From contig JAZSLO010000043.1 of assembly GCA_045535415.1 (NCBI GenBank), forward strand, positions 1 through 47,656: 47,656 nt of DNA, written 5' to 3'. Of this stretch, positions 37,326 through 37,670 are shown in pieces (position 1 is the first letter of the stretch; every line of letters starts with the position of its first letter). The position numbers were made by a program, and so were the translations under genes. This stretch comes from Eubacteriales bacterium (lineage in GTDB: Bacteria; Bacillota; Clostridia; Oscillospirales; CAG-382). The notes beneath the pieces are model-generated. The model saw nothing but the letters and a program-made list of their open reading frames with translations, was not told where the DNA came from and made no database searches.

Positions 37326-37354
37326 TTGCAAAACTCCTTTCTATATGATATAAT
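37326..37354 (+). promoter_or_regulatory. near-consensus sigma-A promoter driving a transcript antisense to the 34-aa peptide gene
   Basis: TTGCAA (37326-37331), 17-nt spacer, TGaTATAAT (extended -10, 37346-37354). Confidence 0.55.
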
Positions 37355-37398
37355 ACAGATGCACCCGAAGGTGAGGGGCTTTCGCCCCTCTGGGTGTC

Positions 37399-37503
37399 CT
37401 ACCACCATTTAATTGCGGTTATCAAAGCGGACAGTGCAATGACGGCTTGGATAACTAACTCGGCAATTTCAAATGAGGTAGGTTTCTTTTTTCTCTTTTT
37501 CAT
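37399..37503 (-). CDS. 34-aa polybasic/hydrophobic membrane peptide, candidate type I toxin
   Basis: Hand translation gives MKKRKKKPTSFEIAELVIQAVIALSALITAIKWW. RBS AGGAAGTGA 6 nt upstream of the ATG. Too short for the supplied ORF track. Confidence 0.5.
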   Translation of the reverse strand: MKKRKKKPTSFEIAELVIQAVIALSALITAIKWW

Positions 37504-37529
37504 TATTCTCACTTCCTTTCTACAAGTAT

Positions 37530-37558
37530 ATTATATCATAGTAGTACGACTATGTCAA
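37530..37558 (-). promoter_or_regulatory. consensus sigma-A promoter for the 34-aa peptide gene
   Basis: On the minus strand: TTGACA (37558-37553), 17-nt spacer, TGaTATAAT (-10 at 37535-37530). Confidence 0.55.
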
Positions 37559-37638
37559 TAGAAATCGAAAAAATAATTGTAAATAAATTGTTAAGGTGAG
37601 CGACTACTTTTTTGAAAATACTGATAATTAAACACAAA

Positions 37639-37670
37639 GGGAGGGCGTATGCCCTCCTGATTGTTTTTTA
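37639..37670 (+). terminator. intrinsic terminator
   Basis: Stem GGGAGGGC/GCCCTCCT, loop GTAT, followed by GATTGTTTTTT. Confidence 0.65.

Follow-up and report, generated by a model that had tools for sequence, protein, structure and literature searches.

A prophage cassette of gut Clostridia with a conserved membrane peptide and a convergent antisense promoter: a candidate variant of type I toxin-antitoxin systems

The yonT-yoyJ/SR6 locus of the Bacillus subtilis prophage SPbeta is an experimentally studied toxin-antitoxin (TA) system of type I, in which the toxin gene is the first open reading frame (ORF) of a polycistronic mRNA transcribed from its own promoter (PMC5848175). Its toxin transcripts occur in a short monocistronic and a long operon form, and the antisense RNA SR6 as a 100-nt form and a 215-nt read-through form extending as far as the toxin promoter (PMC5848175). 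SR6 overlaps the 5' end and the ribosome-binding site (RBS) of yoyJ; YonT is 58 aa long, and yoyJ is degenerate in other Bacillus species (PMC5848175). Among described systems, this is the closest in layout to the prophage cassette of about 620 bp analyzed here, which matches no known toxin family and lies on the minus strand of a 47,656-nt contig (JAZSLO010000043.1 of assembly GCA_045535415.1, taken at its full length and hereafter called the window) from an Eubacteriales bacterium of the CAG-382 lineage. Here, too, a toxin-like first cistron heads a prophage operon, and an antisense promoter is located between it and a second small gene.

Other phage loci resemble the cassette in part. The acr-aca operons of prophages are driven by a strong promoter that carries inverted-repeat operators; they begin with small unannotated proteins and end with a small helix-turn-helix (HTH) or ribbon-helix-helix (RHH) autorepressor. 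This promoter, operator and terminal-repressor logic recurs in our locus; in contrast, cistrons 1 and 2 of the latter encode transmembrane (TM) peptides, an internal antisense promoter is present, and no match to an Acr or Aca family was obtained. In phage P22, the repressor Arc binds between the −35 and −10 elements. Arc is a small RHH protein encoded within the operon of the immI region (Pant-arc-ant plus sar), where it represses its own promoter, and the antisense RNA sar is made from an internal promoter (PMC2629481). Both immI and the present cassette are phage morons combining an operon-encoded small protein of RHH type, a predicted autorepressor in our case, with an internal antisense promoter. 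However, the target of sar is the RBS of ant, a downstream gene, whereas here it would be the peptide cistron, which lies upstream; the order of the genes is reversed, with the repressor last in our locus, and the products are membrane peptides rather than an antirepressor.

Clostridioides difficile prophages carry type I TA loci (CD0977.1/RCd11, CD0956.2/RCd10 and others) whose toxins have 34-53 aa and one TM helix (PMC6563280, PMC7699646), the helix being N-terminal and the C-terminus Lys-rich (PMC6563280). The convergent antisense RNAs of these loci have long complementarity, suggesting a degradation mechanism (PMC6563280, PMC7699646). Clostridia hosts, prophage location, a small one-TM peptide and the convergent antisense layout are common to them and to the window locus, but they have no co-transcribed 2-TM protein or repressor, and no sequence similarity was found by hidden Markov model (HMM) comparison.

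A first-pass annotation, made from the letters of the window alone, had proposed a type I TA locus at this place. The prophage membrane peptide, the conserved convergent promoter and the layout agree with that proposal, but instead of a free-standing two-part module we found a three-gene, apparently self-repressed operon. It comprises a peptide gene of a conserved family at its head, two promoters that are both conserved elements, an RNA helix within the peptide gene, and an operator that covaries with the regulator. Its description as a type I TA variant is partly supported. We propose that the cassette is an antisense-guarded, self-repressed and doubly locked prophage unit of type I TA-like kind, a reading to which we assign a probability of about 0.5.

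The first cistron (gene 1, 37399..37503, minus strand, read from 37503 to 37399) encodes the 34-aa peptide MKKRKKKPTSFEIAELVIQAVIALSALITAIKWW, which starts with a polybasic head, has one TM helix and ends in KWW. Its Shine-Dalgarno (SD) sequence, AGGAAGTGA (37509..37517, minus strand), is unpaired in the predicted mRNA fold and takes the form AGGAGGTGA in relatives. The hydrophobic stretch extends from F11 to W34, and in being shorter than 60 aa with a predicted TM helix the peptide is like type I toxins. By the positive-inside rule, it should be tail-anchored, with the N-terminus inside and the C-terminus outside, and its sequence suggests that it has an Ala-x-x-Ala face for packing and that an acidic stripe, formed by E12, E15 and E/K19, runs along its cytoplasmic half.

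A profile search with the peptide family returned 429 protein clusters, every one unnamed ("hypothetical"), and pattern scans together with the profile search gave 63 distinct DNA loci with the same arrangement, a recurrence well beyond coincidence; a search with the 43-codon open frame gave two relatives. The sources are viral contigs, gut metagenomes (mostly human), and metagenome-assembled genomes (MAGs) or isolates, the last two labeled Roseburia, Ruminococcus, Lachnospiraceae, Acutalibacteraceae or Eubacteriales. Family members are 33-39 aa long. Their Lys/Arg-rich head is variable in sequence and is followed by the core KPT[TA][FYI]E[IV]xxL[IV]I[EK]A[IV]VAxAAL[IL][TS]A[IV][KR]WW, in short KPT...ALITAIKWW-COOH, the terminal WW being present always. 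Entropy at the three codon positions was 0.49/0.19/0.93, most of the variation falling on the third, and the pooled ratio of nonsynonymous to synonymous polymorphism (pN/pS) was 0.23, from which it follows that the ORF is translated and under purifying selection. Gene 1 is a genuine, strongly conserved prophage membrane-peptide gene, and the search for homologues in related prophages, suggested by the first-pass annotation, found the ORF itself conserved.

The locus is single-copy in its own MAG (78% complete), in which a paralogue search returned none, and it was not found among 163 genomes from the same family, as expected of phage cargo. No match to the peptide was obtained in Pfam, NCBIfam or PADLOC, and the sole library match was a weak one to phrog_6632, of unknown function. 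Rfam over 36500-38500 gave no match at E ≤ 1 and no antitoxin RNA family. Blastn against phage GenBank records found no match; in relatives, weak DNA matches were limited to the A-rich, SD and −10 stretch, and a full-text literature search for ALITAIKWW found no paper. Three family members in the databases (P0024, P0029 and P0038) are annotated as read-through proteins (...KWWQ...), in which TAG is read as Gln and the frame continues through the hairpin region. This suggests a TAG-recoded code, used in the annotation of some carriers or truly by them, or else a gene-calling artefact.

Convergent to the operon, and already noticed in the first-pass annotation, is the antisense promoter Pas (TTGCAA-17-TGaTATAAT, 37326..37354, plus strand), which matches 10/12 consensus positions plus TG and has a predicted transcription start at about 37361. 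It is one of only two plus-strand sites in the window at 10/12 with TG and a 17-nt spacer. Pas was conserved in all 58 loci with enough flank. The −35 always had TTG and the −10 always T1, A2 and T6 (58/58 each), the spacer was 17 nt in 57/58, and TG was present in 42/58; the non-critical positions, the flanks and the downstream sequence varied freely, and 17 hexamer combinations occurred. Within the same 130 nt, the best promoter score was 7-9 on the sense strand versus 9-12 on the antisense strand. In its conservation across loci, Pas behaves as a functional σA promoter should, and we think it likely that it is one.

Might Pas instead be a sense-strand element of a plain three-gene operon, either an A/U-rich translation enhancer or a processing site before the SD of gene 2, with no antisense RNA made at all? 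Read on the sense strand, it provides CAA before the gene-2 start and ATTATA upstream of the gene-2 SD, and it coincides in part with the SD, spacer and start of gene 2, a gene that is conserved anyway. The GTG start of gene 2 at 37325 directly adjoins the −35 hexamer, and on the gene-2 mRNA the −10 (37349-37354) lies upstream of the SD (37339-37334), in non-coding spacer. Further, a single 10/12 match is weak alone, as we counted 20 promoter-like sites in 3 kb versus 12 expected. However, neither CAA nor ATTATA is required for translation, and we know of no translational role for CAA ahead of a start codon. The invariance described above, with TTG and T1, A2 and T6 fixed, the rest free and the spacer held at 17 nt, is of promoter type. 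Pas also persists where gene 2 and its SD are gone (L034, L037/L073 and L038) and is kept where the gene-2 start has moved (L027, L029, L054 and L090). Finally, the intrinsic terminator claimed in the first-pass annotation does exist as a terminator-like hairpin with a T-run on the plus strand (37639..37670; hairpin 37639-37658, 8 pairs, 6 GC, tail GATTGTTTTT), and it would have nothing else to terminate, since no other plus-strand promoter or gene lies between 36971 and the hairpin at 37639. We therefore consider the plain operon improbable and return to an antisense RNA starting at Pas.

Between the peptide ORF and Pas, the sense strand holds a GC-rich structure (37361..37397, minus strand), made up of GAGGGGC-GAAA-GCCCCUC and a second short stem. 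The first-pass annotation had drawn two adjacent tetraloop hairpins there. Hairpin 1 (37390-37373) is real and conserved with compensatory pairs, but the proposed second one, CACC-UUCG-GGUG, has one base in common with hairpin 1 and is replaced in the minimum free energy (MFE) fold by CACCC/GGGUG enclosing hairpin 1. A separate CCCC-loop-GGGG stem serves as the second hairpin in most relatives, though not all. These hairpins are predicted to serve as the 3' structure of a short peptide mRNA, and their plus-strand counterpart would be the stem-loop at the 5' end of the antisense RNA.

Within the peptide gene, we found a long-range RNA helix (37398..37482, minus strand) in which CCUACC of the Pro-Thr codons (37482-37477) pairs with GGUAGG of the Trp-stop codons (37403-37398), enclosing inner helices. 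The RNAalifold consensus of 23 loci contains this pairing and predicts the inner helices; 96.8% of its cells were paired, versus 35-55% in slid controls. Five pairs displayed compensatory change, and the covariation score was reached by 0/500 shuffles. Loci with a TGA stop have CCC or CUC instead of CCU. In one of these (L090, with an intact gene), the otherwise invariant Pro has become Leu (CUC) together with the change from TAG to TGA, giving a perfect 10-bp helix, and the KST/UAA lineage has a shifted helix, CCACCAUC:GAUGGUGG. As the CCCACC variant has a C·A mismatch in the sense RNA and a U·G pair in the antisense RNA, the base of the helix, adjacent to the U-run, is kept on the antisense strand. 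An attachment site was also considered as the cause of the high DNA conservation at the ORF 3' end and rejected for the window, the covariation of the RNA helix fitting better.

On the antisense strand, the CCUACC/GGUAGG helix is directly followed by the U-run UUUCUUUUUUCUCUUUUUC (37483-37501), which is complementary to the poly-Lys codons. Of the 10 nt that precede the Pro codon on its 5' side, at least seven are A in 56/61 loci, and in folds of the window and of 14/15 other loci we obtained a 5' hairpin domain, a long hairpin and then the U-run. Helix and U-run together predict a cis-antisense RNA of about 130 nt (37361..37500, plus strand), running from 37361 to about 37490-37500. Although the terminator is present as the first-pass annotation had stated, its transcript of about 300 nt is probably too long and the 130-nt form the likelier one; read-through to 37639-37670 is possible and would be halted there, ahead of the neighboring TAC module. 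The shorter RNA would cover the peptide 3' untranslated region and codons 7-34 or so. Starting at about 37361, it would exclude the RBS of gene 2, in contrast to SR6, which overlaps that of yoyJ. As for the sense mRNA, its first 42 nt are unpaired in both the MFE and the centroid fold; sequestration of the SD by fold-back of the mRNA was considered and rejected, being absent from the predicted fold of the window mRNA.

The second conserved promoter, P1 (TTGACA-17-TGaTATAAT, 37530..37558, minus strand), is a σA-type promoter that precedes the peptide gene. It deserves the name of textbook promoter that it had received: it matches 12/12 positions plus TG, and only three such perfect matches, P1 included, exist on the two strands of the 47.6-kb window. 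Taken with Pas, it makes up a promoter pair that is uncommon even in this single sequence. Among the 39 loci with an intact peptide, none has a P1 score below 11/12. Its 17-nt spacer contains a palindromic operator, CATAGTcgtacTACTATG (37537..37554), the predicted site of the regulator encoded by gene 3. The palindrome type tracks the gene-3 family in at least five classes. The main RHH type is accompanied by operator CATACTGCnnGCAGTATG and its variants, the regulator subtype of the window and L031 by CATAGT...ACTATG (half-sites and subtype being common to both), and a third, RHH-like type by CATACCCCGCGGGGTATG; one HTH type has ACACCTAnTAGGTGT, another ACCGCACAATGTGCGGT, and an XRE-type HTH has CCAC/GTGG. 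Like CATAGT, CATACTGC stands for an operator type. Because the operator changes with the regulator family, autorepression is implied, that is, the covariation implies that gene 3 would repress its own operon through the P1 palindrome. An inverted-repeat operator inside the promoter, together with a small DNA-binding protein in the same operon, is the arrangement of autorepressed operons of the Arc/Aca type. Compared with yonT-yoyJ/SR6, the predicted terminal RHH or HTH autorepressor and the in-promoter operator are additions.

Gene 3 (36977..37174, minus strand) encodes a 65-aa DNA-binding protein, RHH-like to judge from its relatives and compatible with that type in an AlphaFold2 (AF2) model, and a predicted autorepressor. 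Its equivalents at other loci are usually RHH proteins (RHH_1, 27.8 bits versus a cut-off of 20.5, or RepB-RCR_reg), with HTH proteins in some lineages. The subtype common to the window and L031 has no Pfam match for the window protein, which matches phrog_14312 with E 4.5e-7. In the AF2 model (predicted local distance difference test score 82), a coil is followed by two helices, with an extra helix in front, which is compatible with an RHH monomer (strand-helix-helix). Foldseek found no significant match to this model in the PDB and phmmer against the PDB was uninformative, so the RHH assignment of the window protein rests on position, pattern and relatives.

Gene 2 (37155..37325, minus strand) encodes a 56-aa two-TM protein of an unannotated family, with a GTG start and the SD AAGGAG (37339-37334). 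The first-pass annotation was literally right that the antisense span contains no ORF of 60 aa or more, but it missed this conserved shorter gene adjoining the −35 of Pas. Homologues of 52-68 aa, with two hydrophobic segments, a strong SD and a GTG start, lie 3' of the peptide gene and hairpin(s), and one was found at every intact-peptide locus with enough flank; yoyJ, in contrast, is degenerate in other Bacillus species. No credible match to gene 2 was found in Pfam, PHROG or PADLOC, the sole Pfam match, TMEM218_N (E 0.009, 16.4 bits versus a 27-bit cut-off), being a sub-threshold chance match. The last nucleotides of gene 2 are shared with the start of gene 3, the overlap being 20 nt in the window and 8-44 nt at other loci; this leaves no room for a separate promoter and supports an operon, and a single terminator (36971-36944) follows gene 3. 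The peptide is cistron 1 of this three-gene operon, with the order peptide, hairpins, 2-TM protein and RHH-like regulator.

The peptide could also be a secreted signaling pro-peptide, with a basic n-region, a hydrophobic core and a mature C-terminal ...IKWW that is released, its convergent promoters working as in prgQ/prgX. It does have the shape of a signal peptide and an invariant WW at its extreme C-terminus, and a convergent promoter and a hairpin lie downstream of the tiny ORF; its likeness to PrgQ/iCF10, SHP and WW-type ComS is a lead only. However, at loci with called genes, no receptor gene of the RRNPP/Rgg (TPR-type) class was found in or beside the cassette, the only candidates being 60-70-aa RHH or HTH proteins. 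Rather than diversifying into pherotypes, the C-terminus stays nearly the same across distant hosts, part of its nucleotide conservation is explained by the RNA helix, and three conserved acidic residues fall in what would be the h-region. We regard a signaling role as very unlikely.

A more serious alternative keeps the operon and its self-repression and drops the toxicity. Following acr-aca-like logic, a cassette for lysogenic conversion would be expressed in an early burst on DNA entry and then repress itself; its two small membrane proteins would act on the envelope, for example by superinfection exclusion or by blocking a membrane-bound defence effector, and Pas would tune the ratio of cistron 1 to cistrons 2-3. 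The strong promoter, the inverted-repeat operator and the small DNA-binding protein as last gene all suit it. So does the location: in relatives whose surroundings are sufficiently covered, the cassette is found at the end of the prophage, with lysis genes on one side and integrase, attachment site or host genes on the other, and a site between lysis genes and prophage end is the classic position for lysogenic conversion; the window cassette lies within a prophage cargo island. This location speaks for the toxin-antitoxin-like reading as well. Additionally, a lethal toxin would seldom have an RBS as open and strong as that of the peptide, and genes 2 and 3 are kept without an intact peptide. 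On the other hand, PADLOC, Pfam and PHROG gave no functional match, and the anti-CRISPR proteins known to us are soluble rather than 34-aa TM peptides. An invariant antisense promoter aimed only at cistron 1, along with frequent loss of the peptide start, is more typical of a harmful product. This alternative is possible, though we think it unlikely.

Frequent start loss is seen in 22 of the 63 loci, which lack an in-frame start or P1; 20 of the 22 keep Pas, and the two remnants without it are L086 and L088. Copies truncated at the 5' side have their breakpoints at the A-run immediately 5' of CCTACC, where the 3' end of the antisense RNA is predicted. In a recurrent lineage, "NGQK*KPT", an intact cassette is accompanied by a second copy in tandem, with genes 2 and 3 identical and the 5' end replaced (L052). 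The disrupted copies fit selection against the peptide with the antisense gene retained. An exception among them is L039, with a 1-nt deletion within the ORF instead of a 5' truncation. The disrupted copies could also reflect simple decay together with ascertainment, as the search patterns for loci required the ORF 3' end.

The two tandem cassettes of L052 (L052:10190-12570) lie 1.8 kb apart, downstream of a tyrosine integrase. The first is intact; in the second, promoter and peptide start are replaced by unrelated sequence and the ATG is out of frame, and such a 5'-replaced copy recurs in at least eight metagenome contigs. Single-base indels break otherwise intact peptide ORFs in L039 (L039:1993-2150, a 1-nt deletion after ACC) and L020 (an altered A-run length), and could be real inactivation or homopolymer assembly errors.

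In the toxin-antitoxin-like unit that we propose, P1 would drive the three genes for the 34-aa tail-anchored peptide, the 56-aa 2-TM protein and the RHH-like regulator, with the hairpin spacer after the first. As a first lock, to which the covariation points, the regulator bound to the P1-spacer palindrome would shut the operon down. As a second, Pas, internal to the operon between cistrons 1 and 2, would fire backwards and make a stable cis-antisense RNA of about 130 nt, whose end would be formed by the helix and the U-run provided by the Pro-Thr, Trp-Trp-stop and poly-Lys codons of the peptide itself. Owing to the cis arrangement, this RNA would be fully complementary to the peptide mRNA, and the duplex might direct RNase III-type decay of the peptide cistron, perhaps with transcriptional interference, by analogy with the 3'-overlapping type I systems of Firmicutes. 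The peptide would most likely be a membrane-active, toxin-like effector, freed once the repressor and the antisense RNA have decayed, as might happen when the prophage is lost or under infection stress, and the 2-TM protein may be its partner or immunity factor.

Several observations weigh against this proposal. No homology to described type I toxin or antitoxin families (Fst/Ldr, TxpA/BsrG, YonT, Hok, Ibs and the C. difficile toxins) was found. The likeness to C. difficile and B. subtilis loci that the first-pass annotation saw in the layout does not extend to the peptide itself, as its polarity is reversed, with a Lys-rich head and a hydrophobic tail (PMC6563280), and no Pfam, NCBIfam or Rfam match was found; with 34 aa and a Lys-rich N-terminus, it also differs from the 58-aa YonT, again with no Pfam or NCBIfam family match. 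Unlike in many type I toxin mRNAs, neither the SD nor the AUG of the peptide is paired in the predicted fold, and the predicted 130-nt antisense RNA would not reach the RBS. In the upper helices, many G-U pairs favor the sense mRNA over the antisense RNA. The predicted terminator is a base helix closing about 75 nt, which is atypical for intrinsic terminators, so the antisense 3' end remains inferred. Genes 2 and 3 are retained where the peptide start is lost and may have a function of their own.

A bolder version, which we hold only tentatively as it is rather doubtful in all its parts jointly, takes the locus as a "triple-lock" membrane-toxin cassette, widespread in gut Clostridia prophages and so far undescribed. 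Its three control layers would be an RNA antitoxin with a terminator drawn from toxin codons, where the poly-Lys head gives the U-tract and Pro-Thr and Trp-Trp-stop give the stem; a 2-TM immunity factor; and exchangeable repressor/operator pairs that provide each phage with private transcriptional control. If true, the cassette would in effect be a hybrid in which a type I system is combined with a protein-antitoxin one.

If the cassette works as we propose, a large unannotated family (at least 429 peptide clusters, mostly from human or animal gut Clostridia phages) would join the RNA-controlled toxins. Its peptide polarity would be opposite to that of known Firmicute type I toxins, with two extra layers in the autorepressor and the possible membrane immunity protein, and its constraints would overlap, the same 100 nt serving as protein, mRNA fold and terminator of the opposing RNA. 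Since the peptide is too short and gene 2 has a GTG start, gene callers miss both, and prophage cargo in gut MAGs is under-annotated as a result.

Among the surrounding features, the other two perfect 12/12 σ70-type promoters of the window lie at 40436 (plus strand) and about 4630 (minus strand). The terminator after gene 3 (36944..36971, minus strand; 11 pairs, 7 GC) has T-rich tails on both strands and serves in both directions, for the cassette on its own strand and for the lysis operon on the opposite one. The hairpin at 37639-37658 likewise has T-rich tails on both strands and may insulate P1 and the cassette from the promoter region of the neighboring TAC module (37770-37799). In several relatives (L012:2711-3496, L042:2849-3181 and L014:2516-3496), an opposite-strand gene with faint HIRAN or RNase_T/BRCT matches and a small HTH gene lie ahead of the cassette, which suggests a variable cargo slot just upstream of it.

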